Part shown: positions 1 through 18,604 of the stretch, one piece after another
Position numbering within the stretch: position 1 is the stretch's first letter
Layout: each line of letters begins with the position of its first letter
Virus record (IMG/VR): IMGVR_UViG_2585427730_000006
Coordinates: 1 to 31,472 of that record
Direction: 5' to 3' (one strand)
DNA from: a virus
Taxonomy: Duplodnaviria > Heunggongvirae > Uroviricota > Caudoviricetes
DNA: 31,472 nucleotides
Translations under genes and position numbers: made by a program
The notes under the pieces: generated by a model
Databases searched by the model: none
Told to the model about the DNA's origin: nothing
The model's input: only the letters and a program-made list of their open reading frames with translations

Positions 1-1335
<1,335 letters not shown>

Positions 1336-1575
1336 TTGCGGAGCAAGCGATACGGTTGTTGGCAAGTCAAGGGCAAAGCATTCGCGTGAGAGTGGGCGTC
1401 TGCTTTGTGCCAGAAGCGGACATTGCGGCGTTACGGCACGTTAGGTCAGATATTTAAATGCACATGGTCCGCTTGTGGCGGAAGGATACTTACAAGAGTT
1501 GGTGAGAGATAGTAAAATCAATATGAAAATTAAAATTCGGCAATAATTCCTGATATAGTCATCTTAATGAACATA

Positions 1576-1605
1576 AAAACTATCACAATAGGATAGTTTT
1601 TATGT
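1576..1605 (-). terminator. Rho-independent terminator closing the ParA-like operon
   Basis: Inverted repeat aaaactatc / gatagtttt with a 7-nt loop; on the minus strand the hairpin is followed by a T-run, just downstream of the 231-aa ORF stop (1618). Confidence 0.5.
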
Positions 1606-1617
1606 CATACTTGTTAG

Positions 1618-2313
1618 TTAATCACTTAAGGAATGAAGTGAGGCTCGTTGTGCAGAGGTTAAGCTAAGGAGGATTTTTTCTCGATACTCAGGTGCAAAGG
1701 AAAAGAAAACATCAGGAAAAATTCTTATGATAGTTGATATCATAGTCTTAACCACCTTATCAATCACCTTCGAAATATTATCTATTTTAACCAAGTCTAT
1801 TTCGGGAAAAACATTTAAAGCTTTTATGTGAGCCATTTCTTTTACAGTAGCTGTATGTACGTGACTGCATAACGAAGAGTATTCAGCTTTTAAAGTTTCA
1901 TGTAGTAGAGGATTTTTTTTGAAGACAGGATGTTCCCCAGTTTGTTCAATTACCTTAAACAATGATTTTTCTTCAAGTATTGAAGGATCTAGTAAGCAAC
2001 CGATTGATTTTAAAGAATTTTCAATATAACTTCGCATCATTAGATTTGCTGGTTTGTATGCACCATTTATAACCATAAACATAGCTGTACCAAGGTCAGA
2101 TGAAGCTTCTTGCAATCGCTCCAATGAGTTGGCGTCTATTTTCTCCTTGGAGAAATGATACAAACAGTAAACAAGGCACATAAAAGAATAATATCTCTTA
2201 TGTATCATGCTTATTTTCCCTCTTGAGTTAATATTCTCGAAAACATTTTTTAATTTATATTCAGAGAAATAAGTAACTAACTCAGTGAAATCGCTGTTTA
2301 CTTCTCTCGACAT
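1618..2313 (-). CDS. Hypothetical protein, 231 aa, third gene of the ParA-like operon
   Basis: Long ORF in AT-rich DNA, 2 nt from the upstream gene stop, same strand; no recognisable motif. Confidence 0.7.
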   Translation of the reverse strand: MSREVNSDFTELVTYFSEYKLKNVFENINSRGKISMIHKRYYSFMCLVYCLYHFSKEKIDANSLERLQEASSDLGTAMFMVINGAYKPANLMMRSYIENSLKSIGCLLDPSILEEKSLFKVIEQTGEHPVFKKNPLLHETLKAEYSSLCSHVHTATVKEMAHIKALNVFPEIDLVKIDNISKVIDKVVKTMISTIIRIFPDVFFSFAPEYREKILLSLTSAQRASLHSLSD

Positions 2314-2315
2314 TG

Positions 2316-2822
2316 TTAGTCCTTATTGAATATATCTTTTATAACTTCATTCCAGTCATATATCTCATTTTGAGCGCTAGAAAGGTTCTTCCTCTCTTTT
2401 ATTCTACTCAAAACTAGAGGGTTATTTGACATTGAATTGATAATATTATAAGCCTTACCTAAATCGGATGAGTTTTTCTCGTGAACGTCACACACGATTA
2501 TGCCGATCATTTCCTCTCTAGATCTTTTTTCAGGCCTGCTGATTTCGATACCTAACATGCGTGCAAAATCATCTATATCTTTATTTTTTTGGAAGAGATC
2601 TTTGTCTAATAAAATCCTCGGAAGATACCCAACAAGGAAACCTTTAATATCATTTTTTTTGGACTTTGAATTTCTTTCGTTAACTTCTAAATTATCAGTA
2701 TAACTATCTTGAAGTAATTCAATAAAGTTGATTCTTGATAATTTTTTTGAAATAAAGGAAAACTCCTCTAAAAAGTTTAACAGTTGCTTAATTTCTTTTG
2801 AGTTATTTTTTTTGTCAGTCAT
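2316..2822 (-). CDS. Hypothetical protein, 168 aa, Lys/Asn-rich, second gene of the ParA-like operon
   Basis: ORF whose start overlaps the ParA-like stop by 4 bp (ATGA), suggesting translational coupling; no recognisable motif. Confidence 0.7.
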   Translation of the reverse strand: MTDKKNNSKEIKQLLNFLEEFSFISKKLSRINFIELLQDSYTDNLEVNERNSKSKKNDIKGFLVGYLPRILLDKDLFQKNKDIDDFARMLGIEISRPEKRSREEMIGIIVCDVHEKNSSDLGKAYNIINSMSNNPLVLSRIKERKNLSSAQNEIYDWNEVIKDIFNKD

Positions 2823-3649
2823 AAGTCACCTACTCTAGAGAGAAGTTCGTCAGTAATTTTAGACAGCGAAAACTTCATATCCTCATCCGTTAAATTGTTA
2901 ATAAATAAGCCTCTTGTTTGATTTCTTGCCAACTCAGTACGTTTGCTCAAATATGATTTAAAGATCTTATTACGCCAACGTTTTTGATTATTGAAGTAAC
3001 GAAGACTTTCCTCATATAAATTACTATTACCTTCAACCATATTAAAAACTATGCCCGCACATTCAATCTTAAGATCGAAATTTTCTCTCTTCTCATTTAT
3101 AATGCTATCTAATAGATCGATACCAGTGATCGAAAGAGGATCGGGTTTGGCTGGAATGAGGTAATAATCAGATGCAATTAATGCGCTGGACATCCAAACT
3201 GATGGGGTTGGTGGGGTATCAATTATGACATAATCATAGTCATTTTCATGGATTTTAAGAAAGCGTCTAAGCTTGTTTTCTATCCCTTCTCCTGGTTTCA
3301 TTTCAATTTTATATAGCCCAAGGCTTCCGGGAACAATGTGAAAATTATCATTTAATTGAATTGGTGTTATATCGGCTAATTCTTTAGGTGTGTTAACTAA
3401 AGGACCAGTCATTGTAGATAGTCGAATTTTTGAACTATAAAAAATATCACATATGCTATCGCCTCCGCTTTTCATATGTGCAACATATTTGCTTGTATCC
3501 ATTACACATTGCGTTGCGTTAAATTGTGGGTCGATATCTATTAATAATATTTTTTGCCCAAGTTTATCTGAAAGATGATTAGCAATATTGGTAGCCAATG
3601 TTGACTTACCAACGCCACCTTTCATATTGATTAAGCTAATAACTTTCAA
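2819..3649 (-). CDS. ParA/Soj/MinD-family P-loop ATPase, 276 aa
   Basis: Deviant Walker A KGGVGKST at residues 10-17, LIDIDPQ motif, hydrophobic strand ending in DTPP (YVIIDTPP); no N-terminal HTH extension (type Ib-like architecture). Confidence 0.85.
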   Translation of the reverse strand: MKVISLINMKGGVGKSTLATNIANHLSDKLGQKILLIDIDPQFNATQCVMDTSKYVAHMKSGGDSICDIFYSSKIRLSTMTGPLVNTPKELADITPIQLNDNFHIVPGSLGLYKIEMKPGEGIENKLRRFLKIHENDYDYVIIDTPPTPSVWMSSALIASDYYLIPAKPDPLSITGIDLLDSIINEKRENFDLKIECAGIVFNMVEGNSNLYEESLRYFNNQKRWRNKIFKSYLSKRTELARNQTRGLFINNLTDEDMKFSLSKITDELLSRVGDL

Positions 3650-3660
3650 TCTTCTTGCTC

Positions 3661-3900
3661 CTGTTTTGATTAACGCTAAGCTTTTTCATCAGCATTGAAA
3701 TTTAACATGTGTTTTACAAACTTATGTCTTATCACTACCTTATCATTTTTTACATACACCATAAATATTTTTAACTAAAAATTTTTGGTTTTCAACCTGA
3801 AATCTTTATCTTTAAAAACAAAACATTACAATATTTTTAGTAAGATACCTTACCTAATGTAATGTGAATGGCTCAATTTTGATTAACACTTAAGCTATGT
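3661..3900. repeat. Imperfect direct repeat pair (ttttgattaacGCT-AAGCT / ttttgattaacACTTAAGCT) about 210 bp apart, bracketing the AT-rich region upstream of the ParA-like gene; an inverted repeat cattaca...tgtaatg lies between them at ~3824-3867
   Basis: Copies at about 3665-3683 and 3875-3895, read directly from the sequence. Confidence 0.4.
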
Positions 3901-4156
3901 TAATAATGGTTTTGTAAGTGTGATGAGGGTTCCATATGAAGAAGTGATTTCCCGAACAATACAACATGAATATCATCCTCGTAGTCGGTGTTTCTTCACA
4001 TGAACTCTGTCGCAAATACGCTATATGAAACGTGGCAAGATGAATGTACCTGAGGTTATCAATCTTAAACCGCTTGAGAGTACGCCCTGATCCTGCCCGT
4101 TGATAAACTAACTGCATTGTTTGTAATGCTTCATCGGTGGTGAGAACAAGTTTCAT
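3890..4156 (-). CDS. Hypothetical 88-aa ORF, possibly a gene remnant at the boundary of the AT-rich cassette
   Basis: The first ~60 codons are in moderate-GC DNA, the C-terminal ~30 codons run into AT-rich sequence containing the distal direct repeat; no motif recognised. Confidence 0.25.
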   Translation of the reverse strand: MKLVLTTDEALQTMQLVYQRAGSGRTLKRFKIDNLRYIHLATFHIAYLRQSSCEETPTTRMIFMLYCSGNHFFIWNPHHTYKTIINIA

Positions 4157-4662
4157 ACTTCCGCTTCTCGCTCAAAGCGGACTAGAAGGTTAGCTTGCGT
4201 CGGACTTGGCGTATTTAAAGAAGTACTGGTGGTGACTGGTTGTTGTGTTCCATTTCTACAGAACAAAATCACAGAAACTATACCCAATAGTTGTATCTCA
4301 TCAATGATGAGACAGCCTCATATTTATCAGGACTGGTGTACGTCCAATACAGGAGGTTGTCGTGCTGGTTCTCAAATGTGCGCTGGCTATTGCAGCTGTA
4401 ATGGCAATTTATTGTCTTGCTGTTGTTCTTATGGATCGCCTTTCTGATTGATTTTATATTGGCGAGGTAACGGGAGTTAAGTAGAATGGCTGCGGGTGCT
4501 TGAGGCTATCTGTCTCAGGCATGAACACCAAAGGCAGATAGAGAAAAGCCCCAGTTAACATTACGCGTCCTGCAAGACGCTTAACATTAATCTGAGGCTC
4601 AATCTATGAACGGCAAATCTAGGTTAGCCTCTTACGTGCCGAAAGGCAAGGAGAAGCAGGCT

Positions 4663-4818
4663 ATGAAGCAGCAAAAGGCGATGTTAATCGCCCTGATCGT
4701 CATCTGTTTAACCGTCATAGTGACGGCACTGGTAACGAGGAAAGACCTCTGCGAGGTACGAATCCGAACCGGCCAGACGGAGGTCGCTGTCTTCACAGCT
4801 TACGAACCTGAGGAGTAA
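4663..4818 (+). CDS. hokD: Hok/Gef-family type I toxin, 51 aa, HokD/RelF-like
   Basis: Translation MKQQKAMLIALIVICLTVIVTALVTRKDLCEVRIRTGQTEVAVFTAYEPEE has the Hok signature (single TM, conserved Cys, C-terminal AVF.AYE); AAGGAG RBS 11 nt upstream. The in-frame upstream extension from 4606 in the ORF track is probably not the real start. Confidence 0.8.
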   Translation: MKQQKAMLIALIVICLTVIVTALVTRKDLCEVRIRTGQTEVAVFTAYEPEE

Positions 4819-4885
4819 GAGACCAGGCGGGGGAGAATCCCTCGCCACCTCTGATGTGTCAGGCATCCTCAACGCACCCGCACTT

Positions 4886-4911
4886 AACCCGCTTCGGCGG
4901 GTTTTGTTTTT
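4886..4911 (+). terminator. Rho-independent terminator downstream of hok
   Basis: Hairpin cccgc-ttcg-gcggg followed by ttttgtttttt. Confidence 0.6.
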
Positions 4912-4984
4912 TCCTAGCATTCTGGTTTACAATTCGCACGCCAGCCTGAACAACTGGCACCTGCTGCGCCAGCAGAGACAACCG

Positions 4985-5263
4985 ATGGCGCACGATACCA
5001 AATTACACAATTCTGATGATTCTGCCGTCTTTGCCAGCAGGCACGGGCGGCGTTCCCGCACTTTCAAATCTGACTGGTTCCAGCATCCCCCATGCACTGA
5101 AGAACAGGCCGAGTGGCTAATTCAGTGCTACCGCAGACACGGATACGAGATTAAGAAAGCCCTCAGCCTCGATTATCGTCACTGGATAATCTCCGTCAGG
5201 CTTCCTTACTCCGAACGCCCACCGCGTCCGTCCCGCACATTCCAGCAACGCATCTGGAGGTAA
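4985..5263 (+). CDS. Hypothetical protein, 92 aa, in the position Rem occupies in Qin-type prophages
   Basis: ORF with ATG at 4985, between hok and the DUF968 gene; identity inferred from gene order only. The track ORF starting at 4856 overlaps the hok terminator, so the internal ATG was chosen. Confidence 0.45.
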   Translation: MAHDTKLHNSDDSAVFASRHGRRSRTFKSDWFQHPPCTEEQAEWLIQCYRRHGYEIKKALSLDYRHWIISVRLPYSERPPRPSRTFQQRIWR

Positions 5264-5264
5264 C

Positions 5265-6311
5265 GTGCGGGTATTACTTCGACCTGTTCTGGTACCGGAA
5301 CTCGGGCTGGTGATCGTTAAGCCGGGCCGGGAATCCATGCCGGTATTCCACAATACCCGGGTACTGGTGGAGCCGGAACCAAAAAGCATGCGTAATCTGC
5401 CGTCCGGGGTCGTTCCTGCCGTTCGCCAGCCGCTAGTGGAAGACAAAACATTGCTGCCGTTTTTCAGTAACGCACGGGTGATTCGTGCTGCTGGTGGTGC
5501 TGGTGCATTGTCTGACTGGCTGTTGCGCCATATTAAATCCTGCCAGTGGCCTCATGGTGATTACCATCACAGCGAAACCGTCATACATCGTTACGGTGCT
5601 GGCGCGATGGTGTTGTGCTGGCACTGTGACAACCAGTTGCGTGACCAGTCCTCCGAATCACTTGAGCAACTTGCTCACCAAAACCTGTCAGCATGGATGA
5701 TTGATGTCATGCGCCATGCAATGAATGGCACACAGGAGCGGGAATTATCGCTGGCTGAATTATCCTGGTGGGCTGTCTGCAATCAGGTGGCGGACGCACT
5801 ACCGGAGGTAGTATTACGTCGTTCTCTGGGGTTACGTGCGGAAAAAATTCGCTCGGTGTACCGCGAAAGCGACATCGTACCGGGAGAGCAGACCGCCACC
5901 AGCATACTGAAGCAGCGCACAAAAAATCTTGCGCCGCTGCCTCACGCCCACCAGCAAAATCCACCACAGGAAAAGACGGTGGTCAGCATTGCTGTTGATC
6001 CGGAGTCTCCGGAATCTTTCATGAAGCGACCTAAACGTCGCCGTTGGGTAAATGAGAAATATACGCGCTGGGTAAAGACACAGCCGTGTGCGTGTTGTGA
6101 TAAGCCAGCCGACGATCCCCATCACCTGATTGGTCATGGTCAGGGCGGAATAGGGACAAAATCCCACGATATTTTCACGCTACCGCTGTGTCGGGAGCAT
6201 CACAACGAGCTTCATGCGGATCCGCTGGCGTTCGAAGAAAAGCATGGTTCCCAGATTGATTTAATTTTTCGTTTTCTTGATCGCGCCTTTGCAACCGGCG
6301 TGCTCGGGTAA
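5265..6311 (+). CDS. DUF968-family protein (YdfU-like) with a C-terminal HNH-like Cys/His motif
   Basis: 348-aa ORF, apparently GTG-initiated 2 nt after the previous stop; C-terminus CACCDKPADDPHHLIGHGQ...CREHHNELH; size and position match YdfU-type proteins of lambdoid nin regions. Confidence 0.75.
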   Translation: MRVLLRPVLVPELGLVIVKPGRESMPVFHNTRVLVEPEPKSMRNLPSGVVPAVRQPLVEDKTLLPFFSNARVIRAAGGAGALSDWLLRHIKSCQWPHGDYHHSETVIHRYGAGAMVLCWHCDNQLRDQSSESLEQLAHQNLSAWMIDVMRHAMNGTQERELSLAELSWWAVCNQVADALPEVVLRRSLGLRAEKIRSVYRESDIVPGEQTATSILKQRTKNLAPLPHAHQQNPPQEKTVVSIAVDPESPESFMKRPKRRRWVNEKYTRWVKTQPCACCDKPADDPHHLIGHGQGGIGTKSHDIFTLPLCREHHNELHADPLAFEEKHGSQIDLIFRFLDRAFATGVLG

Positions 6312-6323
6312 AAGAGGTTACTG

Positions 6324-6695
6324 ATGCGTATAGAGTTTGTTTTGCCTTCCCCGCCGACGGTGAACACCTACTGGCGTCGTCGTGGCAGCACATATTTTGT
6401 ATCAAAAGCCGGTGAGCGTTATCGCCGGGATGTGGCACTTATTGTCCGCCAGCAGCGGCTGAAATTAAACCTGTCCGGAAGGCTGGCAATAAAAATTACT
6501 GCAGAGCCGCCGGATAAGCGCCGTCGGGACCTGGACAATATCCTGAAAGCACCGCTGGATGCACTGACGCATGCGGGGCTTCTCATAGACGACGAGCAGT
6601 TTGATGAAATCAATATTGTGCGCGGTAAGCTCGTTCCTGGTGGTCGGCTGGGCGTGAAGATTTGCGAAATTAGAGGTGATAGTAATGGGGCGTGA
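6324..6695 (+). CDS. rusA: RusA-family Holliday junction resolvase
   Basis: 123 aa; catalytic-region motif RRRDLDN and overall resemblance to RusA; AAGAGG RBS upstream of ATG 6324. Confidence 0.85.
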   Translation: MRIEFVLPSPPTVNTYWRRRGSTYFVSKAGERYRRDVALIVRQQRLKLNLSGRLAIKITAEPPDKRRRDLDNILKAPLDALTHAGLLIDDEQFDEINIVRGKLVPGGRLGVKICEIRGDSNGA

Positions 6696-7038
6696 TATGT
6701 ATGAGGTTTTAGACCGCTGGGGGGCATGGGCTGCAGCAGAAAATAGTGGTGTCGATTGGCAACCGATAGCAGCGGGCTTCAAGGGGCTTTTACCTCATGG
6801 TAAAAAGTCACGGATTCAGTGTGATGATGACGAAGGCATTATGATAGACAGTTGTGTGGCTCGGTTGAGAAGGTATAAACCAGAGGAATATGAGCTCATC
6901 ATAGCCCACTTTGTTATTGGTATCTCATTACGCACTATTGCCAAAAAGAGAAGGTGTTCAGATGGCACGATTAGAAAGGAATTACAAACTGCAATTGGTT
7001 TTGTAGAGGGTATTACGAGCGTTATTGCATGTAAATAA
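6685..7038 (+). CDS. Late antiterminator Q, QuuD-type
   Basis: Translation (MGRDMYEVLDRWGAWAAAEN...WQPIAAGFKGLLP...CDDDEG...CVARL...CSDGTIRKELQ) matches the pattern of DLP12 QuuD. Start taken as ATG 6685; GTG 6676 is an alternative. Overlaps the rusA 3' end. Confidence 0.75.
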   Translation: MGRDMYEVLDRWGAWAAAENSGVDWQPIAAGFKGLLPHGKKSRIQCDDDEGIMIDSCVARLRRYKPEEYELIIAHFVIGISLRTIAKKRRCSDGTIRKELQTAIGFVEGITSVIACK

Positions 7039-7042
7039 AAGC

Positions 7043-7072
7043 TAAAAGCCACCGTAGTGGCTTTTAGCATTT
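7043..7072. terminator. Bidirectional-looking hairpin immediately after Q
   Basis: aaaagccac-cgta-gtggctttt with A-run on one side and T-run on the other; could terminate both Q (+) and the convergent 427-aa gene (-). Confidence 0.5.
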
Positions 7073-7244
7073 TAGGATTGTGCAGGTAATGTTTTGTTCA
7101 ATTTAGTAAAGAAGTTAGATTGGCTTGTTACAGTACGTCGACTCTTTCCAGAAGTACTCAACTGAAAGAAATCATTGATGCTTTTGGGTTGAGTTCTTTC
7201 ATAGGCTTGCTTAAGTGACATGTGTTCCCCTTGTCTATTTGTTG

Positions 7245-8528
7245 CTATGACCGTGAAAAGTAGTGATGGTTCAGTTCTTTTGCAAAATAGTGCTTACGTT
7301 TAACCCAGATAAAACCATCAGCTTTAGAAATGATTGCAACATCTATGGGGCCTCCCACTGTTTCAGTATCATCGGAGACCTTGCGCTTGAAAGCGGTTAA
7401 ATTTACTAATGATTCAGCCATATAAGCTAAATCTTGCTTGGGTAAAAACTCGATCATATTTACGACTTTGTCAACATAGTTTTCTCGGACAAAGCTATCA
7501 ATACGCCCCTTGCAATCGGAAACAGTTCTGCGCACTACATCAACTATAGCATCCTTGGCTCCTTCGATATCTGAAGTGGGCACCAAATCTGTGATTACTG
7601 AATCAATACCATCAAGTAAATCGCCGATAGAACGTTGATACTCAGCATGAAGATTTTGGATAAGATGTGAACTAGCTCCTTGCATGAAAGCAGAAACTTC
7701 ATCCTCTTGCGCAAAGGGAGTCACGCCGCAATTAGGAGTGATGCAGCACTTGTCAGCATCTGTGGTTTTCCTTATTTTATCATTAAAGAAGCCACAAACT
7801 TCATATGATAATACTTTAGGGTAATAGTCTTTATCGCCATAACCTGCAATCACAATCCCAGAGACGGAACCAATATCACTTTGCTTGCATATCATAGCTG
7901 CCAATACATCACTAACTGCTTTTGTCAACTGTGGAGTTATGGATATTGAATCAAAGTCACTAAACTTTTGAGCAATGATGCGTTGGGTAATTGATGAAGC
8001 ATAGGTTTGGGCTGCTTGTTCATCATCCGGAGTAAAACCATCAAAGTAATTAATATCAGATAATTTTGTAAGGAGATCGTTGCAATAATTCGTGAGGTCT
8101 GTAACAAATTGATTCTTATCGAAGTTAACGAGATATGTTGGTTCGAGACCTTCAGAAAAAGCATCAACAAGCATGCTGAATACAATCTCGCTCAGGAAGT
8201 GATAAAGATGAGCCTCACGCATACCTGGTGTGATGATTGATTTAGCTGACTGTAGATAATTGAAGAAATCCTCAGCATATTCCTCCAAAGAGTCAAAACA
8301 TTTAGAGCCTAAATCCTTTCTATAAGCCTTAATGATAAGCTCCCATGGAGCTGTGCAGAGATCACCAGTTCCATATACCATCAAACCTACAGGATGATGT
8401 TTAGTGAGAGCGAAAAGCTTTTCAGCGCCATTATAGATTTTATGTTTGCCGCCTCCAGAAATCGTTACAGCTGAATCTGCGGCTAAAGCTACTGCGGTCT
8501 TGTTAAATACGGCTATTTCTGCTGTCAT
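7245..8528 (-). CDS. Hypothetical protein, 427 aa; possible divergent proteasome-beta/HslV-like Ntn hydrolase with large insertions (inference only)
   Basis: Long ORF in visibly lower-GC DNA, opposite to late-gene orientation. N-terminus MTAEIAVFNKTAVALAADSAVT...GAEKLF aligns by eye with the proteasome-beta/HslV N-terminal segment (Thr1, acidic residue 17, Lys before LF); C-terminal GGPIDVAIISKADGF resembles the proteasome-beta GG.IDVAVI.KDG motif. Confidence 0.8.
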   Translation of the reverse strand: MTAEIAVFNKTAVALAADSAVTISGGGKHKIYNGAEKLFALTKHHPVGLMVYGTGDLCTAPWELIIKAYRKDLGSKCFDSLEEYAEDFFNYLQSAKSIITPGMREAHLYHFLSEIVFSMLVDAFSEGLEPTYLVNFDKNQFVTDLTNYCNDLLTKLSDINYFDGFTPDDEQAAQTYASSITQRIIAQKFSDFDSISITPQLTKAVSDVLAAMICKQSDIGSVSGIVIAGYGDKDYYPKVLSYEVCGFFNDKIRKTTDADKCCITPNCGVTPFAQEDEVSAFMQGASSHLIQNLHAEYQRSIGDLLDGIDSVITDLVPTSDIEGAKDAIVDVVRRTVSDCKGRIDSFVRENYVDKVVNMIEFLPKQDLAYMAESLVNLTAFKRKVSDDTETVGGPIDVAIISKADGFIWVKRKHYFAKELNHHYFSRS

Positions 8529-8636
8529 TTTTTACATAGGGTTTATATGTTGTGTAATGAGAAAAATACAAAAAAATTAACGCGTACGCAAAAATTCTTG
8601 TAATCTGTTAAGAGTGGTTACTTCGCCACACAGCTT

Positions 8637-8668
8637 AAACCCGCCGTCGAGCGGGTTTTTTTGTACCT
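8637..8668 (+). terminator. Rho-independent terminator on the + strand
   Basis: aaacccgc-cgtcga-gcgggttt followed by tttttt; the upstream neighbour is on the other strand, so the terminated transcript is unidentified. Confidence 0.5.
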
Positions 8669-8784
8669 GTAAACTTGGTGCAGTACGGTAAACACGCTGG
8701 TGGTAGTGAATACTGACTTTTTATCTTGCTGGCTTTTTAGACAAGAGTTATTGGTATGTCATGTTAACCAGAAGGGAAAAAGAC

Positions 8785-8979
8785 ATGCTAAAACAGCAAG
8801 ATATGACAGAAACGGCGAAAGTTGTTTTTAATGAATTAAGCATCGAACCGGCAACAGTCGGGGAGATTGCACAAAACACATACCTTTCACGCGAACGCTG
8901 TCAGTTAATACTGACCCAGTTGGTTATGGCGGGGCTGGCAGATTACCAGTTCGGCTGTTACAGACGTCTTCAGCAATGA
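8785..8979 (+). CDS. Small hypothetical protein (64 aa from ATG 8785), possible HTH/winged-helix regulator
   Basis: ORF directly upstream of the methyltransferase gene; purine-rich stretch before ATG 8785; segment ATVGEIAQNTYLSRERCQLILTQL resembles an HTH. Start uncertain (track ORF begins at 8761). Confidence 0.4.
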   Translation: MLKQQDMTETAKVVFNELSIEPATVGEIAQNTYLSRERCQLILTQLVMAGLADYQFGCYRRLQQ

Positions 8980-9128
8980 AGGGCTTTTAATTTGTGAAAA
9001 TGGGCGGCTGGTGGGTGTTGGTAGCACCTGCCAGCCATTCGCTCATGCTTACTGGTCACAAGCGAACCACGGCCCACTGCTTTAGCGCAAAAGCAGAGTG
9101 AGCCTACCAGAGTTACGCTTACTGATCC

Positions 9129-10175
9129 ATGAAAAATACTGTAAAAATAAACAGTGTTGATTTAATCAACGCTGATTGCCTGCATTTTATTCAGTCCCTG
9201 CCTGATGATTCCATTGACCTGATTGTTACCGATCCGCCTTACTTCAAGGTGAAACCCAACGGTTGGGACAATCAGTGGAAAGGGGACGAAGATTACCTTA
9301 AGTGGCTGGACCACTGTCTGGCCCAGTTCTGGCGGGTGTTGAAACCTGCCGGAAGCCTTTACCTGTTCTGTGGGCATCGCCTGGCATCTGATATCGAAAT
9401 CATGATGCGTGAACGCTTTAATGTGCTGAACCACATTATCTGGGCGAAGCCGTCCGGACGCTGGAACGGATGCAACAAGGAAAGCCTGCGGGCGTATTTC
9501 CCGGCAACAGAGCGCATTCTGTTTGCTGAACATTATCAGGGGCCATACCAGCCCAAAAATGACGGCTATGCGGCAAAGGGGCGCGAGCTTAAACAGTGCG
9601 TCATGGCCCCGCTGATTTCTTACTTTCGTGATGCGCGAGAATCTCTGGGAATAACATCAAAACAGATAGCGGAAGCCACCGGAAAGAAAAACATGGCGTC
9701 ACACTGGTTTGGTGCCAGTCAGTGGCAGTTGCCGAACGAGGCTGATTACAAAAAACTTCAGGCGCTGTTCGCGCGTGTTGCAGCAGAAAAACACCAGCGC
9801 GGGGAGCTGGAAAAGCCGCACCACCAGCTGGTCAGCACATACAGTGAACTGAACCGGCAATATGCCAGCCTGCAGGAGGAGTATAAATCCCTGCGGCGTT
9901 ATTTTTCCGTATCAGCTGCTGTTCCGTATACGGATGTCTGGACGCACAAGCCTGTGCAGTATTATCCAGGCAAACATCCCTGTGAAAAACCGGCAGATAT
10001 GTTGCGTCAGATAATTACTGCCAGCAGTCGCCCCGGTGATTTGGTCGCTGATTTTTTTATGGGGTCTGGCTCAACAATAAAAGCAGCACTTTCACTGGGA
10101 CGTCGCGCAATTGGCGTGGAACTGGAAGAAGAGAGATTTAATCAGACTGTAACTGAAATAAAAAATAATCGTTAA
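9129..10175 (+). CDS. Orphan DNA methyltransferase, beta-class (N6-adenine or N4-cytosine)
   Basis: Motif IV DPPY (IVTDPPYF) near the N-terminus and motif I FxGxG (FFMGSGST) near the C-terminus, the circularly permuted beta-class order; no adjacent restriction endonuclease gene visible. Confidence 0.85.
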   Translation: MKNTVKINSVDLINADCLHFIQSLPDDSIDLIVTDPPYFKVKPNGWDNQWKGDEDYLKWLDHCLAQFWRVLKPAGSLYLFCGHRLASDIEIMMRERFNVLNHIIWAKPSGRWNGCNKESLRAYFPATERILFAEHYQGPYQPKNDGYAAKGRELKQCVMAPLISYFRDARESLGITSKQIAEATGKKNMASHWFGASQWQLPNEADYKKLQALFARVAAEKHQRGELEKPHHQLVSTYSELNRQYASLQEEYKSLRRYFSVSAAVPYTDVWTHKPVQYYPGKHPCEKPADMLRQIITASSRPGDLVADFFMGSGSTIKAALSLGRRAIGVELEEERFNQTVTEIKNNR

Positions 10176-10343
10176 ATATGCATTTAATAATTTCTTTATT
10201 TCATAAAAAATAAAAATATATACGTATATTTACAAATCTTGATATGATTTTCCATTGAAAAGAGAGCTGGCATTATTAATATCGGTACCCGGTTCCGAAG
10301 GGGATGTAAGCGCGGTCATTTTTATTTCTCTTGAGGAACCTGT

Positions 10344-10419
<76 letters not shown>

Positions 10420-10422
10420 TAT

Positions 10423-10497
<75 letters not shown>

Positions 10498-10855
10498 GAG
10501 AAACAAGCCTTATTGTATCGTTGCACTGGCGTATTTTTTATTGCGTGGGAGCAGGTTGTTTTTAAAAGGCATTCTGTTTTCTGGCTGTGATTTGAGGTCG
10601 GTTATAGCCACAGTGCTGTTTTTTACACCACTGGAATGGTGCATTATCGGTGGAAATTGAGCATTTCCTGACAGGGGCCGATGATGCACTATCCCGGTGT
10701 TGTAAATAACACTACAGAGGTGTTCCTCAGTGCGAGGGTGGTTTATGTAACTGTTTAGCGGGAAACCACAGTATTCATGGAGAGATGGATACTTCGGGGG
10801 GCACCCGACACCTCTGTTTTTCTACTACAAAAATGATTCATCTCTGGCATTTTTC

Positions 10856-10884
10856 AACCGCCGTTCCGGGCGGTTTTTTTTATT
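10856..10884 (+). terminator. Rho-independent terminator in the tRNA-to-lysis intergenic region
   Basis: aaccgcc-gttccg-ggcggtt followed by an 8-T run. Confidence 0.6.
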
Positions 10885-11201
10885 CTGAACTCAGAAAAGA
10901 ATACACGGGCATTGATATTACCCGTGTGGCAAGGCCATGAAAGCCAATAATGAACTGAGCGCAAAAAAAGCGCGGCTGTCGGATTAACGCCGCGGGACAA
11001 AGTCCGTGAAGAAGAATAAGCATCAGTCTCCTCCAGGAGACGATTTGATATTACTAAGCTTTAAAAATGGTTTAAACCCCCGGATTAACCTTAATTTCAG
11101 ATAAGCTTTATTTCATTTTCTCCGAGCCACGTCAGGCGCATATCACATCAGATAACACCACATAAAAGGTATCTGCGGGTGCCTTTCACGGGGTGTTTTT
11201 T

Positions 11202-11228
11202 TACGGGCCGCTGGTGGCCCTTTTTTAT
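11202..11228 (+). terminator. Terminator-like hairpin immediately upstream of the lysis cassette (candidate tR'-type element)
   Basis: gggcc-gctggt-ggccc followed by ttttttattt, ending ~15 nt before the holin RBS. Confidence 0.5.
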
Positions 11229-11244
11229 TTACAGGAGAAAAAGT

Positions 11245-11637
11245 ATGTCTGAACCCTTATCCGGTTCCGGCACGGCTGCAGCGCTCGGCGGGGCGACGGT
11301 GTACGGGCTGTTTACCGGAACGGATTTCGGGATTGTGTTTGGTGCCTTTGCCGGGGCGTTATTTGTGGCAACGATGCCGCAGGCGCTTTCAGCCTGGCGT
11401 GTGGCGGCACATTTTCTGGTGTCGTTCATTGTTGGTGTGCTGGGGGCAGAAGTTCTGGCATCCTGGCTGGTAAAGCATACAGAGTTTGACGGTGCACCTG
11501 TCGACGCATTGTGTGCAGTACTGGTGTCAGTGGTGTCGGTGAAGATTCTCTCGTTCATCCACCAGCAGGATATTGCATCACTGGTGTCCGGTCTGTTCTC
11601 CCGTCTGCGGGGCGGAGGAGGCGGCAATGTTAAGTAA
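11245..11637 (+). CDS. Putative holin, 130 aa, multi-TM
   Basis: AGGAG RBS before ATG 11245; several Gly/Ala-rich hydrophobic segments; first gene of the lysis cassette. The track ORF starts earlier, at 11179. Confidence 0.55.
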   Translation: MSEPLSGSGTAAALGGATVYGLFTGTDFGIVFGAFAGALFVATMPQALSAWRVAAHFLVSFIVGVLGAEVLASWLVKHTEFDGAPVDALCAVLVSVVSVKILSFIHQQDIASLVSGLFSRLRGGGGGNVK

Positions 11638-11905
11638 CCTTCCCGGATTGCTGAATGTGGCGTTATGCACGGTTATCGTGCTGACGCTCTTTTTTTATCG
11701 TCGTCGTGATTCCAGACATAAACCGTTGATGTCATGGCTGGCCTGGCTGCTGATGCTGCTTTATGCCTTTGCACCACTCAGTTATCTGTGCGGTCGCCCG
11801 TTAGCGGCGAACTGGCTGGCGGTGGGGCTTAATCTGCTGTTCTGCGTGTTGGTTATTCGCGCACGCGGGAACGTTTCAAAAATCTTTGTATTACGAAGAC
11901 GCTGA
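11627..11905 (+). CDS. Small multi-TM membrane protein, 92 aa (second holin or antiholin-like)
   Basis: ATG 11627 overlaps the upstream stop; three hydrophobic segments and a basic C-terminus (RARGNVSKIFVLRRR). Confidence 0.5.
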   Translation: MLSNLPGLLNVALCTVIVLTLFFYRRRDSRHKPLMSWLAWLLMLLYAFAPLSYLCGRPLAANWLAVGLNLLFCVLVIRARGNVSKIFVLRRR

Positions 11906-11906
11906 T

Positions 11907-12452
11907 ATGAAGTCGAAAGATGAAATTTTTGACGAAGTTCTGGGAAAAGAGGGCGGTTACGTCAATCACCCGGATGATAAAGGCGGACCGACAAAATGGG
12001 GTATTACGGAAAAAGTCGCCCGCGCTCACGGATATCAGGGCGATATGCGTGACCTGACACGCGAACAGGCACTGGAAATCCTTGAGGCGGATTACTGGTT
12101 CGGACCACGCTTTGATCAGGTGGCCGCATTATCCTCTGATATTGCTGCAGAGTTGTGTGATACCGGTGTGAATATGGGGCCGTCCGTAGCATCGAAAATG
12201 CTCCAACGCTGGCTGAACGTTTTCAACCTGCAAGGCAAATTGTTCCCGGATATGGACGCAGACGGGCGTATCGGCCCCCGCACGATTAATGCACTACGGA
12301 CTTATCTGCAAAAACGCGGCAAAGACGGCGAACTGGTGATGCTGAAGGCGCTGAATTGCACGCAGGGCGACCGCTATCTGGAGCTGGCAGAAAAACGCGA
12401 GGCCAACGAGTCGTTTGTCTACGGCTGGATGAAAGAGCGCGTAGCAGTTTAA
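11907..12452 (+). CDS. Endolysin, glycoside hydrolase family 108 with C-terminal peptidoglycan-binding domain
   Basis: N-terminal signature EGGYVNHPDDKGGPTKWGIT typical of GH108 lysozymes. Start set at ATG 11907; TTG 11886 is the alternative. Confidence 0.8.
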   Translation: MKSKDEIFDEVLGKEGGYVNHPDDKGGPTKWGITEKVARAHGYQGDMRDLTREQALEILEADYWFGPRFDQVAALSSDIAAELCDTGVNMGPSVASKMLQRWLNVFNLQGKLFPDMDADGRIGPRTINALRTYLQKRGKDGELVMLKALNCTQGDRYLELAEKREANESFVYGWMKERVAV

Positions 12453-12545
12453 AAACTGACGCTGAAGTGCTGAACACCCTCAACTCACGCAGGCTCTTTT
12501 CTGGGGTTACGATGAGCGAAAGTAAGGGGTACAGCATCAGATAGC

Positions 12546-12580
12546 AAAAACCCCGGCTGCTGGAACAGTCCGGGGTTTTT
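12546..12580. terminator. Strong hairpin terminator after the endolysin gene
   Basis: aaaaa-ccccgg-ctgctggaacagt-ccgggg-ttttt. Confidence 0.65.
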
Positions 12581-12671
12581 AGTTTTCACGTCAAAGAGGA
12601 AATTGTGAGTAGTGAGTACGGAGAAAATCCTCGTGGGAAAGTATAAAAGATTCTTTTTGAGGTTGTCCATT

Positions 12672-12785
12672 ATGAAAGGTATTGAAGTGGAAACTCCCGC
12701 GAGCCTTGATTTGACAAGGGCTGCGGCCTTTGCAATTCGCCTTGTGGCGGTCGCTGTTCTGATTTGGGCTGTGCGTTGGTGGTGA
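12672..12785 (+). CDS. Possible 37-aa membrane peptide, translationally coupled to the downstream lipoprotein gene
   Basis: ATG 12672 with GAGG ~10 nt upstream; C-terminal hydrophobic stretch AAAFAIRLVAVAVLIWAV; stop overlaps the next ATG (ATGA at 12785-12789). Below the ORF-track size cut-off; hand-translated. Confidence 0.3.
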   Translation: MKGIEVETPASLDLTRAAAFAIRLVAVAVLIWAVRWW

Positions 12786-12786
12786 T

Positions 12787-12969
12787 ATGACGCGAAAACA
12801 CTGGACACACAGAATGCCGCGAACGGCGGCGAAATGGGCACTGGTAGCGATACTGGTGCCTTTTTTCTTGGTGGGATGCGTCAGCCTGGATAAAGCGCGC
12901 CAGCTTTTCGATACGGCTTCTCAGGTCTGTGAAATTGTCGACGGTGTTCGGCAGTGTATGCAGAACTGA
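12787..12969 (+). CDS. Small lipoprotein, 60-aa precursor, with lipobox LVGC
   Basis: Signal peptide then FFLVGC lipobox; mature part ~29 aa with three Cys; sits where an Rz1-type o-spanin would be but is not Pro-rich. Confidence 0.45.
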   Translation: MTRKHWTHRMPRTAAKWALVAILVPFFLVGCVSLDKARQLFDTASQVCEIVDGVRQCMQN

Positions 12970-13109
12970 TCGCCTGTAAGAGCAGAATATTTTGCTGAAA
13001 AATGAAGGGGTCACTTGCGTCCGGAAAGCATGAAATTCTATGTTTGTGATCATTCGATGACATAATTTCTTACTTCCGCCGTTTCCGGGGGGGAGGAACA
13101 AAGTAGAAA

Positions 13110-13131
13110 GAGTTGCCCGTTTGATGGGCAA
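13110..13131. terminator. Hairpin between the convergent lipoprotein gene and bor
   Basis: gttgccc-gtttgat-gggcaac. Confidence 0.45.
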
Positions 13132-13140
13132 CTCATGCAG

Positions 13141-13434
13141 TTATTGTGAGCAATACACACGCGCTTCCAGCGGAGTATAAATGCCTAAAGTAATAAAACC
13201 GAGAAATCCATTTACGAATGTTTGCTGGGTTTCTGTTTTAACAACATTTTCTGCGCCGCCACAAATTTTGGCTGCATCAACAGTTTTCTCCTGTCCAATT
13301 CCCGAAACGAAGAAATGATGGGTGATGGTTTCCTTTGGTGTTACTGCTGTCGGTTTGTTTCCAACAGTAAACGTCTGTTGAGCACATCCTGTAATAAGCA
13401 TTGCCAGAGCGGCAGAAAACAACATTTTTTTCAT
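13141..13434 (-). CDS. bor: Bor lipoprotein (serum-resistance lysogenic conversion protein), 97 aa
   Basis: MKKMLFSAALAMLITGCAQQTFTV...LEARVYCSQ, near-identical to lambda Bor as recalled; start set at the MKKM ATG (13434) rather than the longer track ORF. Confidence 0.9.
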   Translation of the reverse strand: MKKMLFSAALAMLITGCAQQTFTVGNKPTAVTPKETITHHFFVSGIGQEKTVDAAKICGGAENVVKTETQQTFVNGFLGFITLGIYTPLEARVYCSQ

Positions 13435-13794
13435 CTTATTATCCTGCATTGTTAAAAACGGCAGAATCCTATGTGACAACAATTAAACGATAGTTAAATG
13501 GATTGATGAAAATTAAAACTATATAGGTGGATGCTCAGCCTATTGGAGGAGGGGGGGCACTCAGAATCCTGTGGAATGAAATAAACCGCTCTATCTGTCC
13601 ATTACCCTTTTAGCTGCGCTGTATCGTCGCCGTATTCCCGCATTAACCATGACCGTAGCCCGACGGGGAATTCCTTCTGCGTGAGTGTGCGGGAATAATC
13701 AAAAACGATGCACACCGGGTTTTACTGTGCTGACAGACGCAGGGTTACCCTCATAGTCGCTTTTCCGGTGCGATGGTGGAAGAAACCGGGATGT

Positions 13795-13989
13795 TTATTC
13801 ATCATCACTTTGGATTGATGTATATGCTCTCTTTTCTGACGTTAGTCTCCGACGGCAGGCTTCAATGACCCAGGCTGAGAAATTCCCAGACCCTTTTTGC
13901 TCAAGAGCGATGTTAATTTGTTCAATCATTTGGTTAGGAAAGCGGATGTTGCGGGTTGTTGTTCTGCGGGTTCTGTTCTTCGTTGACAT
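13795..13989 (-). CDS. Small basic protein, 64 aa, YlcI-like (DUF3950-type)
   Basis: MSTKNRTRRTTTRNIRFPNQMIEQINIALEQKGSGNFSAWVIEACRRRL... in the position of small ORFs between bor and cos in lambdoid phages; family name from memory. Confidence 0.55.
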   Translation of the reverse strand: MSTKNRTRRTTTRNIRFPNQMIEQINIALEQKGSGNFSAWVIEACRRRLTSEKRAYTSIQSDDE

Positions 13990-14149
13990 GAGGTTGCCCC
14001 GTATTCAGTGTCGCTGATTTGTATTGTCTGAAGTTGTTTTTACGTTAAGTTGATGCAGATCAATTAATACGATACCTGCGTCATAATTGATTATTTGACG
14101 TGGTTTGATGGCGTAGATGCACGTTGTGACATGTAGATGATAATTATTA

Positions 14150-14377
14150 TCATTTTGCGGGTCCTTTCCGGCGATCCGACAGGTTACGGGGCGGCGACCT
14201 CTCGGGTTTTCGCTATTTATGAAAATTTTCCGGTTTAAGGCGTTTCCGTTCTTCTTCGTCGTAACTTAATGTTTTTATTTAAAATACCCCCTGAAAAGAA
14301 AGGAAACGACAGGTGCTGAAAGCGAGCTTTTTGGCCTCTGTCGTTTCCTTTCTCTGTTTTTGTCCGTGGAATGAACA
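14150..14377 (+). other. cos site: cosQ, cosN (12-nt cohesive-end sequence GGGCGGCGACCT at 14188-14199) and cosB up to the Nu1 start
   Basis: Sequence gcgggtcctttccggcgatccgacaggttacgGGGCGGCGACCTctcgggttttcgctatttatgaaaattttccggtttaagg matches the lambda genome ends as recalled. Confidence 0.85.
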
Positions 14378-14897
14378 ATGGAAGTCAACAAAAAGCAGCT
14401 GGCTGACATTTTCGGTGCGAGTATCCGTACCATTCAGAACTGGCAGGAACAGGGAATGCCCGTTCTGCGAGGCGGTGGCAAGGGTAATGAGGTGCTTTAT
14501 GACTCTGCCGCCGTCATAAAATGGTATGCCGAAAGGGATGCTGAAATTGAGAACGAAAAGCTGCGCCGGGAGGTTGAAGAACTGCGGCAGGCCAGCGAGG
14601 CAGATCTCCAGCCAGGGACTATTGAGTACGAACGCCATCGACTTACGCGTGCGCAGGCCGACGCACAGGAACTGAAGAATGCCAGAGACTCCGCTGAAGT
14701 GGTGGAAACCGCATTCTGTACTTTCGTGTTGTCGCGGATCGCAGGTGAAATTGCCAGTATTCTCGACGGGATCCCCCTGTCGGTGCAGCGGCGTTTTCCG
14801 GAACTGGAAAACCGACATGTTGATTTCCTGAAACGGGATATCATCAAAGCCATGAACAAAGCAGCCGCGCTGGATGAACTGATACCGGGGTTGCTGA

Positions 14898-14923
<26 letters not shown>
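14378..14923 (+). CDS. nu1: Terminase small subunit Nu1
   Basis: 181 aa, MEVNKKQLADIFGASIRTIQNWQEQGMPV..., same length as lambda Nu1. Confidence 0.95.

Positions 14924-18604
<3,681 letters not shown>

Follow-up and report, generated by a model that had tools for sequence, protein, structure and literature searches.

The DNA considered here (IMG/VR record IMGVR_UViG_2585427730_000006; the window, 31,472 nt in full) comes from a lambdoid prophage of Escherichia coli, and contains a 747-bp gap (10498-11244) between a pair of tRNA genes and the holin. With a probability that we place at about 0.68, this gap is a non-coding module at the moron site of the late region, combining two convergent small-RNA (sRNA) genes with a barrier of terminators. 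It is a mosaic of three modules, M1 to M3, that consist almost entirely of structured RNA, and in every one of them the G·U pairs, as read from the alignments of relatives, appear to identify the transcribed strand.

Two predicted facing RNAs and a terminator barrier

The forward-strand RNA of M1 folds into a four-way junction of the STnc100 type, followed by a mostly single-stranded linker and an intrinsic terminator, T1 (Table 1). In an alignment of 54 distinct cores with 49-80% identity (A3), the consensus fold comprises this junction and the terminator with 10 compensatory pairs; 97.5% of the alignment cells are paired, against 44-59% when the pairing partners are slid, and there are 11 pairs with double changes against 0-3. 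The minimum free energy (MFE) fold of the window sequence by itself gives the same junction, whose helix P5 carries the CGGGNGGCACCCG motif. A preliminary description of the gap, made without database searches, had pointed to a long-range complementarity enclosing about 90 nt and had suggested a comparative search for covariation: the complementarity is real, though its GAGGTG arm lies at 10717-10722, not at 10723, and encloses 86 nt up to the CACCTC arm at 10809-10814, and the helix it forms, P1, closes the junction RNA with strong covariation. T1, which had been placed at 10856-10884 and whose bounds are corrected here, is kept in 54 of the 54 homologues. The linker, unpaired in the consensus, varies in sequence and length among subfamilies and is likely to be the seed region of the sRNA.

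Between the tRNAs and the junction lie two structures that the preliminary description did not list, a multi-branch domain (5' domain I) and a long, nearly perfect hairpin. Counted together as 55 pairs in an RNAalifold analysis of 35 distinct homologues, they give 98.9% paired cells, 409 G·U cells and 10 pairs with double changes on the plus strand, against 77.8% paired on the minus strand and 37-52% when slid. The hairpin, with an MFE of -46.7 kcal/mol on the plus strand and -36.1 on the minus strand (a difference of 10.6 kcal/mol), has no Rfam matches other than to miRNA-precursor models, and these fall far short of the thresholds. Folding, another of the checks suggested earlier, shows all four segments to be more stable than their shuffles, with z-scores of -7.3 for the hairpin (10617-10713), -3.7 for 10698-10884, and -3.8 for both 10498-10625 and 11100-11240. 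Likewise, seven terminator-like sites were found in 10100-11400, against 1.5 +/- 1.2 in shuffled sequences.

The second candidate RNA is read from the reverse strand of M2. Its alignment (A4; 47 distinct sequences from a second IMG/VR scan) has 99.0% of cells paired on the minus strand with 112 G·U cells, against 91.1% and 4 G·U cells on the plus strand, and 33-46% paired when slid. The strand-specific G·U pairs assign the hairpins at 10903-10927, 10971-10994, 10995-11005 and 11026-11041 to the reverse strand. The first of these is the CACGGG...CCCGTG hairpin of the preliminary description, found where it had been reported, and the second and third are additional to its list. The fourth is what had been called a perfect palindrome; the inverted repeat exists, but it consists of 6 bp around a non-palindromic 4-nt loop (GTCTCC-TCCA-GGAGAC) and is no true palindrome. 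The U-rich tail predicted to end this RNA at 10893 consists, in most relatives, of seven or eight uninterrupted U. Upstream, a putative sigma-70 promoter belongs to the best conserved blocks of M2 (with TAGTAT as the -10 element in other variants) and predicts a start at about 11041, exactly where the 5' hairpin begins. Hfq-dependent sRNAs are usually built from a hairpin, a U/C-rich single strand and a terminator, and the predicted reverse RNA has just this build, its conserved U/C-rich stretch (11006-11025) being a plausible seed. As the predicted reverse RNA ends 12 nt from the forward terminator (forward end 10881, reverse tail end 10893), the two predicted genes are convergent.

M3 adds a CA-rich leader and two forward-strand terminators in tandem, A and B, the last of which ends 18 nt before the holin ATG (11245). 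Across 51 distinct homologues, plus-strand pairing reaches 98.3% of cells and includes 117 G·U cells; the minus-strand reading gives 83.5%, and slid controls give 41-58%. Terminator B is the second T-run terminator of the preliminary description (there 11202-11228), confirmed with new bounds, and the terminator-like hairpin A had not been noted. The earlier idea that the gap harbors regulatory sites thus holds in the limited sense that three forward-strand terminators stand between the upstream promoters and the holin. The CA-rich stretch at 11152-11170 was considered as an AgvB-like mimic of GcvB and dropped, with no match to the AgvB/AsxR models of Rfam at E-values up to 10; it reads better as the leader of the tandem terminators. 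A literature search with sequence strings of the region returned a single match, a primer spanning terminator B in a paper on the Stx2e holin.

The strand asymmetry also bears on the idea that the inverted repeats act at the level of DNA, as protein-binding palindromes or as recombination hot spots at the mosaic joints. The hairpins do adjoin module boundaries and one of the repeats is nearly palindromic; symmetry in DNA, however, predicts no strand preference, whereas each module has 108-403 alignment cells that are G·U pairs on a single strand and turn into A·C when the opposite strand is read, which makes such a role very unlikely.

A diverged STnc100 relative and its unclassified candidate partner

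The Rfam/Infernal scan that had been proposed earlier recovered only the two tRNAs above threshold (69.8 and 65.6 bits with the Rfam tRNA model) and left STnc100 below its gathering score. Nonetheless the STnc100 model (RF02076) aligns at 10686-10885 over its full length (1-206), with the helices in the same order. A covariance model built solely from the window lineage (R1; its E-values are rough, the calibration having been shortened) finds canonical STnc100 copies in E. coli O157 Sakai and in enteropathogenic E. coli (EPEC): Sakai Sp11 (49.8 bits, E=7e-10), Sp17 (43.5 bits, E=2.1e-8) and Sp4 (42.2 bits, E=4.1e-8), EPEC PP5 (38.7 bits, E=2.6e-7), and Sakai Sp9 (29.7 bits, E=3.3e-5) and Sp5 (26.4 bits, E=1.9e-4). 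Against PasD2 it scores 13.5 bits (E=0.19). The Sakai copies in Sp11, Sp17, Sp4, Sp9 and Sp5 coincide with or adjoin the Hfq peaks EcOnc04, 06, 05, 28 and 27 from crosslinking and analysis of cDNA (CRAC). STnc100 copies in Sakai are reported as stable, Hfq-associated transcripts, and EcOnc27, the RNA just downstream of stx2B, was annotated as STnc100 by others. Because R1 retrieves the canonical copies while Rfam's score is not reached and blastn is blank, the forward RNA appears to be a diverged lineage of the STnc100/PasD superfamily, homologous at the profile level and outside Rfam's own criterion. The suggestion of an sRNA in the preliminary description is thereby borne out by a covarying four-way junction and by profile-level homology to the Hfq-binding STnc100/EcOnc sRNAs.

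The reverse RNA finds no such family. It has no Rfam match at E-values up to 10, the AsxR and AgvB models (RF02703 and RF02702, as a pair) included, and neither nhmmer with its 3' part nor a second covariance model, R2, matched the partner loci of Sakai Sp3/4/5/9/11/17 and EPEC PP2/4/5. In this comparison AsxR (Sp5), EcOnc03 (Sp9), PasA and PasC were covered at their own loci and AgvB only through Rfam RF02702 (the Sp10 locus being left out). By these searches it is no detectable member of the compared families (AsxR, AgvB, PasA, PasC) and shares with them position and orientation only.

Several points weigh against the interpretation of the gap as a pair of sRNA genes. The RF02076 match reaches 19.9 bits against a gathering score of 47 (E=0.053 in a 763-nt search, 0.24 in a 3.5-kb search), and blastn of the window against the Sakai and EPEC STnc100 copies gives no similarity. 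There is no convincing forward promoter close to P1, and the putative reverse promoter agrees with the consensus at 8/12 positions, below the scan threshold; transcript ends, promoters and Hfq binding in the window lineage are all predictions. The pattern with which the homologues were collected includes P5 and part of P1, so that the invariance of these helices is uninformative. Finally, the covariation observed in A3 and the 118 double-change cells of A4 were each reached by 0/500 shuffles, but these controls overstate significance, the homologues being closely related prophage copies whose compensatory cells represent few independent events. Set beside the low Rfam score are the findings that thirteen related variants also fall below the gathering threshold, with the true copy in EPEC PP5 scoring 123.6 bits.

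In a rival reading the structures are purely cis-acting, serving the late operon and the tRNA unit as terminators, processing sites or insulators, with no role in trans. In its favor, a U-run follows five of the hairpins on the respective strand, such hairpins mark the mosaic breakpoints, and for the window lineage any trans targets and Hfq binding are predictions. Against this, a junction with 11 compensatory pairs and a 190-nt 5' domain far exceed what termination needs, and the homologous RNAs of Sakai and EPEC are stable, Hfq-bound and have mapped targets. We therefore regard an exclusively cis-acting gap as unlikely, and prefer the convergent sRNA pair with its terminator barrier.

Table 1. 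Positions of the predicted RNA features, modules and neighboring genes in the window
Feature	Position	Strand	Details and basis
Q	6685-7038		
427-aa ORF	7245-8528	-	
Small ORF	8761-8979		
DNA methyltransferase	9129-10175		
tRNA-Thr(UGU)	10344-10419	+	ARAGORN; Rfam tRNA
tRNA-Gly(UCC)	10423-10497	+	ARAGORN; Rfam tRNA
Module M1	~10420 to 10885/10894		tRNA-Gly and forward-strand RNA
5' domain I, multi-branch	10521-10618	+	closed by 8-bp helix 10521-10528/10611-10618
Long near-perfect hairpin	10622-10706	+	~29 bp (29 predicted pairs)
STnc100-type four-way junction	10717-10814	+	P1 GAGGUG/CACCUC; P2 CCUC/GAGG; P3 GUGGUU/AACCAC; P4 GUAUU/GAUAC; P5 UCGGG/CCCGA
Variable, mostly single-stranded linker	10815-10855	+	unpaired in consensus
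Intrinsic terminator T1	stem 10856-10875, eight T to 10881	+	terminator scan
Convergent candidate sRNA	10893-11041	-	alignment A4; terminator scan
Reverse RNA, terminator	stem 10927-10903, U-rich tail to 10893	-	RNA of ~150 nt
Reverse RNA, small hairpin	10937-10927	-	
Module M2	~10946 to 11145		
Reverse RNA, hairpin and U-run	10994-10971, U-run 10970-10963	-	possible first 3' end, ~80 nt
Reverse RNA, GGAC/GUCC hairpin	11005-10995	-	
Reverse RNA, conserved U/C-rich single strand	11025-11006	-	CUUAUUCUUCUUCA
Reverse RNA, 5' hairpin	11041-11026	-	
Putative sigma-70 promoter	-35 TTTAAA 11076-11071, -10 TAATAT 11053-11048	-	17-nt spacer; read from the sequence
Module M3	11146/11152 to holin		
Module 3 RNA	11152-11226	+	CA-rich leader (AUAACACCACAUAAAAGG), hairpin A, terminator B
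Terminator-like hairpin A	11156-11195, seven U to 11202	+	
Terminator B	stem 11205-11220, six T (U) to 11226	+	terminator scan
Two holin genes	first start 11245		then GH108 endolysin, then Iss/Bor

Conservation, coding capacity and prophage context

The preliminary description had made an RNA interpretation hinge on conservation among related prophages. The gap is indeed matched, at 78-100% identity, in 372 of 5,426 complete E. coli genomes (~7%), many of them enterotoxigenic E. coli (ETEC), with at least 80% of its length covered in 171 of the 372, and it is also matched in phages SerU-LTIIb and vB_EcoS-683R6. Several ETEC chromosomes carry it with 100% identity, and strain 120899 matches the window at 99.8% identity across 897-16203. 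A scan of genome contigs (596 Gb) with a 16-base pattern gave only chance matches in unrelated phyla, the pattern being too short.

As stated earlier, the gap holds no open reading frame (ORF) of at least 60 aa; the longest has 59 aa (10510-10689, minus strand), and a 152-aa ORF with a GTG start at 11179 is the holin frame extended upstream of its real ATG. Homologues of the gap differ by 1-nt indels, and their longest ORFs have anything between 37 and 150 aa, lying on the plus strand in 32 and on the minus strand in 32. A hydrophobic ORF (10541-10660) was considered as a type I toxin and rejected, its frame being broken by variation in T-run length among homologues. We also weighed whether the gap could be a decayed protein gene, the pseudogene of a moron such as TerB, an esterase or a toxin. 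Hypothetical ORFs have been annotated here in relatives (132 aa in ETEC1732, 105 aa in 683R6) and other prophages carry morons at the same site; yet the annotated ORFs vary in frame and strand, no Pfam family was found for any ORF of the gap, the 'hypothetical proteins' of relatives included, and these ORFs have only 45-47% amino-acid identity to the window where nucleotide identity is 86% (ETEC1732) or ~80% (683R6, whose protein match is also frame-broken). Searches of the region by tblastn with TerB, DUF3927, esterase, Stx2, LT-IIb and IraM gave nothing significant. A decayed gene is thus highly improbable, and the gap is, by all these sequence comparisons, non-coding. The 'hypothetical proteins' in question overlie the structured RNA region, namely WP_064226585.1 in ETEC1732 (locus L004, 3112-3510) and URC09393 and URC09394 in phage 683R6 (locus L002, 4192-4509 and 4617-4742); none of the three is conserved, and they are probably mis-annotations.

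The modular makeup emerges from comparing the gap with 64 distinct IMG/VR relatives gathered with a 22-nt pattern. The module boundaries coincide exactly with terminators, the M1 breakpoint (~10881-10894) falling at T1. M2 is variously deleted, preceded by a 415-bp insert or split from M3 by TerB and DUF3927 genes, and M3 occurs alone upstream of the holin in the Stx2e phage phiP27. Phage vB_EcoS-683R6 has the three modules in front of a lambda-type S holin; the modules therefore move together with the tRNAs and are not tied to any one lysis cassette. Between the methylase and a window-type holin, porcine Stx2e prophages carry the stx2e operon. In the LT-IIb prophage SerU-LTIIb the tRNA-gap-holin region is tandemly duplicated (locus L001, 1079-2131 and 3024-3843), the second copy having no equivalent of window 10817-11120, i.e. 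of the forward terminator and M2. One IMG/VR contig (L148) has two STnc100-type motifs of different subfamilies 766 nt apart (2349-2370 and 3115-3136), which suggests tandem stacking of sRNA modules.

The order of genes, compiled from the annotation of strain 120899 and our own ORF and tRNA scans, is Q, pR'/tR', small ORF, DNA methylase, tRNA-Thr, tRNA-Gly, gap and holin. This puts the gap between Q/pR' and the lysis cassette, at a site that in relatives is occupied or split by TerB and DUF3927, by stx2e or by the 415-bp insert. Among the alternatives named in the preliminary description was a 6S-like late leader, a short transcript from pR' stopped at tR' as in lambda. A place before the lysis genes and a terminator at its end would suit the gap to this role; however, Q ends at 7038, and it is the segment at 8606-8667, with a strong forward terminator of its own (8637-8658), that is 84% identical to the segment directly after Q in the Stx2 prophage Sp5. 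The pR'/tR' leader is thus probably at ~8583-8667, outside the gap and ~1.9 kb upstream of it, separated from Q by a 1.5-kb insert and from the gap by the small ORF, the methylase gene and the two tRNA genes, and a 6S-like identity of the gap itself is scarcely credible.

Some neighboring genes also deserve mention. The 427-aa ORF, without a Pfam family, separates Q from the late promoter region and has a terminator of its own (7068-7041); it looks like a moron of unknown function, as MazF or OmpC is found at the same position in other relatives. The 72-aa small ORF, kept upstream of the methylase in ETEC and porcine relatives (L004, L005) and in Sakai Sp9, Sp4 and Sp11, has weak winged-helix Pfam matches (DprA_WH, TrmB) below the cut-offs. 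Just past the lysis cassette is the gene of the Iss/Bor serum-resistance lipoprotein (13141-13482, minus strand), a classic lambdoid moron. In strain 120899 an IS66-family element breaks the gene of the terminase large subunit (locus L003, 17706-20406); the window is without this insertion (~16196-16203), and therefore derives from a relative with an intact terminase.

Predicted mode of action and known counterparts

A tRNA lies upstream of the junction motif on the same strand, at 286-552 nt, in 73 of 85 motif instances in the IMG/VR relatives, and in 72 of them it is tRNA-Gly; the STnc100 copies of Sakai Sp4 and Sp9 likewise follow a tRNA, by 89 and 125 nt. A possible forward promoter inside the long hairpin (TTGAGC-17-GATGAT) was discarded, matching at 8/12 positions only and not being kept in a four-sequence alignment. 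The tRNA linkage, the structured trailer and the want of a convincing promoter near P1 make it plausible that the forward sRNA is co-transcribed with the tRNAs and then cut out, with the long hairpin as the site of RNase III.

By the alignments, the trailer of tRNA-Gly folds into a conserved 190-nt domain (10521-10706), with the junction RNA, a single strand and the terminator ending at 10881 after it; a predicted reverse RNA of ~80 or 150 nt (from 11041 to ~10963 or 10893) runs toward it. Both RNAs would be made in the lysogen, the forward one being either transcribed from its own promoter or processed from the tRNA co-transcript, possibly by RNase III at the long hairpin, and both may be Hfq-dependent trans-regulators like EcOnc27/STnc100 and PasD of Sakai and EPEC. 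Full complementarity to the late transcript could also let the reverse RNA regulate that transcript in cis. Three forward terminators, of which the tandem pair (11156-11226) stands directly before the ribosome-binding site of the holin, are predicted to stop unmodified transcription short of the lysis genes; after induction, Q-modified polymerase from pR' (~8.6 kb) would pass all three. Such a layout might explain the silence of the lysis genes, and of toxin morons inserted there, until Q acts.

More tentatively still, one may picture a prophage tRNA-sRNA operon whose single transcript, ending at 10881, would comprise tRNA-Thr, tRNA-Gly, the 190-nt spacer and the STnc100-type sRNA and would release the sRNA through RNase III at 10622-10706; the reverse RNA would be a new sRNA family that does the work of the anti-sRNAs without sharing their sequence. 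We consider this possible but doubtful. If it holds, STnc100-type RNAs would be tRNA-trailer products in origin. In any case, the conserved linkage of tRNA, spacer and sRNA makes the maturation pathway of this class directly testable.

The new elements are modest: a lineage missed by Rfam and by genome annotation, a conserved structured spacer between tRNA and sRNA, and an unclassified convergent partner. Their relevance lies in the fact that late-region sRNAs of prophages (AgvB, AsxR, PasD, EcOnc27) rewire host regulation in pathogenic E. coli, while Rfam-based annotation misses the lineage and the Prokaryotic Genome Annotation Pipeline (PGAP) leaves the region blank or fills it with a 'hypothetical protein'. 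A covariance model from the window lineage links it to STnc100 and could extend that family.

Several known systems offer themselves for comparison. 3'ETS-leuZ is reportedly a regulatory RNA derived from a tRNA trailer, and the window RNA also lies in the 3' trailer of a tRNA unit; the window trailer, however, is ~385 nt long, highly structured and equipped with its own terminator, and its co-transcription is a prediction. With the pR'-tR' leaders lambda 6S and StxS the likeness is that of a short terminated transcript of the late region, but the window's counterpart of that leader is at ~8583-8667.

The anti-sRNAs AsxR, AgvB and EcOnc03 have the same placement as the reverse RNA, convergent and back-to-back with an STnc100-type RNA. 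Their hallmark, a conserved 3' region of ~42 nt (GUAUCUCAUGC..UUGCCCGAACCCAYUCGGGC), is absent from the reverse RNA of the window, where resemblance by eye is limited to a short CAUGGC.UUGCC; they are also 51-60 nt long with a variable 5' seed of 14-18 nt, as against a predicted ~80-150 nt. PasA and PasC of EPEC are likewise reverse-strand sRNAs between a late-region moron and the holin, and PasA transcripts end at either 85 or 236 nt; they differ in having another promoter and no sequence or profile similarity to the reverse RNA, and blastn of the window against PasA, PasC and PasD gave no similarity.

Two parallels concern the forward RNA. PasD1/PasD2 of EPEC E2348/69 (EcOnc13 in Sakai), also a late-region prophage sRNA, of ~173 nt, shares the opening GCAUGG..CCUCC..GGAGG motifs with the window RNA, but shows no intact P5 hairpin in the alignment and follows a DUF3927 gene rather than a tRNA. 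A shared ancestry of PasD and STnc100 was proposed in a 2026 preprint. STnc100 itself (EcOnc27/sRNA103, EcOnc04, EcOnc05 and EcOnc06 of O157) has the same helix order as the window RNA: one helix closes the structure, three hairpins lie within it, the CGGGAGGCACCCG hairpin among them, and a variable linker leads on to the terminator. It likewise occupies the late region of lambdoid prophages, after tRNAs or a moron and facing a convergent partner. The window RNA differs in its middle helices and linker, and in the 190-nt structured domain between tRNA and RNA, which the Rfam model does not have.

A precedent for the arrangement as a whole was described in Sakai, where morons are tolerated downstream of the Q-antiterminated pR', in a region that 'carried convergent sRNA genes'; after stx2B in Sp5 these are EcOnc27 and, opposite it, AsxR, and seven other Sakai prophages have pairs of a similar kind (Tree et al., 2014). 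The Sp5 terminators stand back-to-back as in the window, the gene order of Sp9 is that of the window, and PasA and PasC adjoin the holin (2026 preprint) on the reverse strand (2021 EPEC study). The predicted RNA genes of the window lie on opposite strands, as assigned from the G·U asymmetry, with facing terminators. As all these placements agree, the window is a further instance of this known convergent-sRNA architecture.

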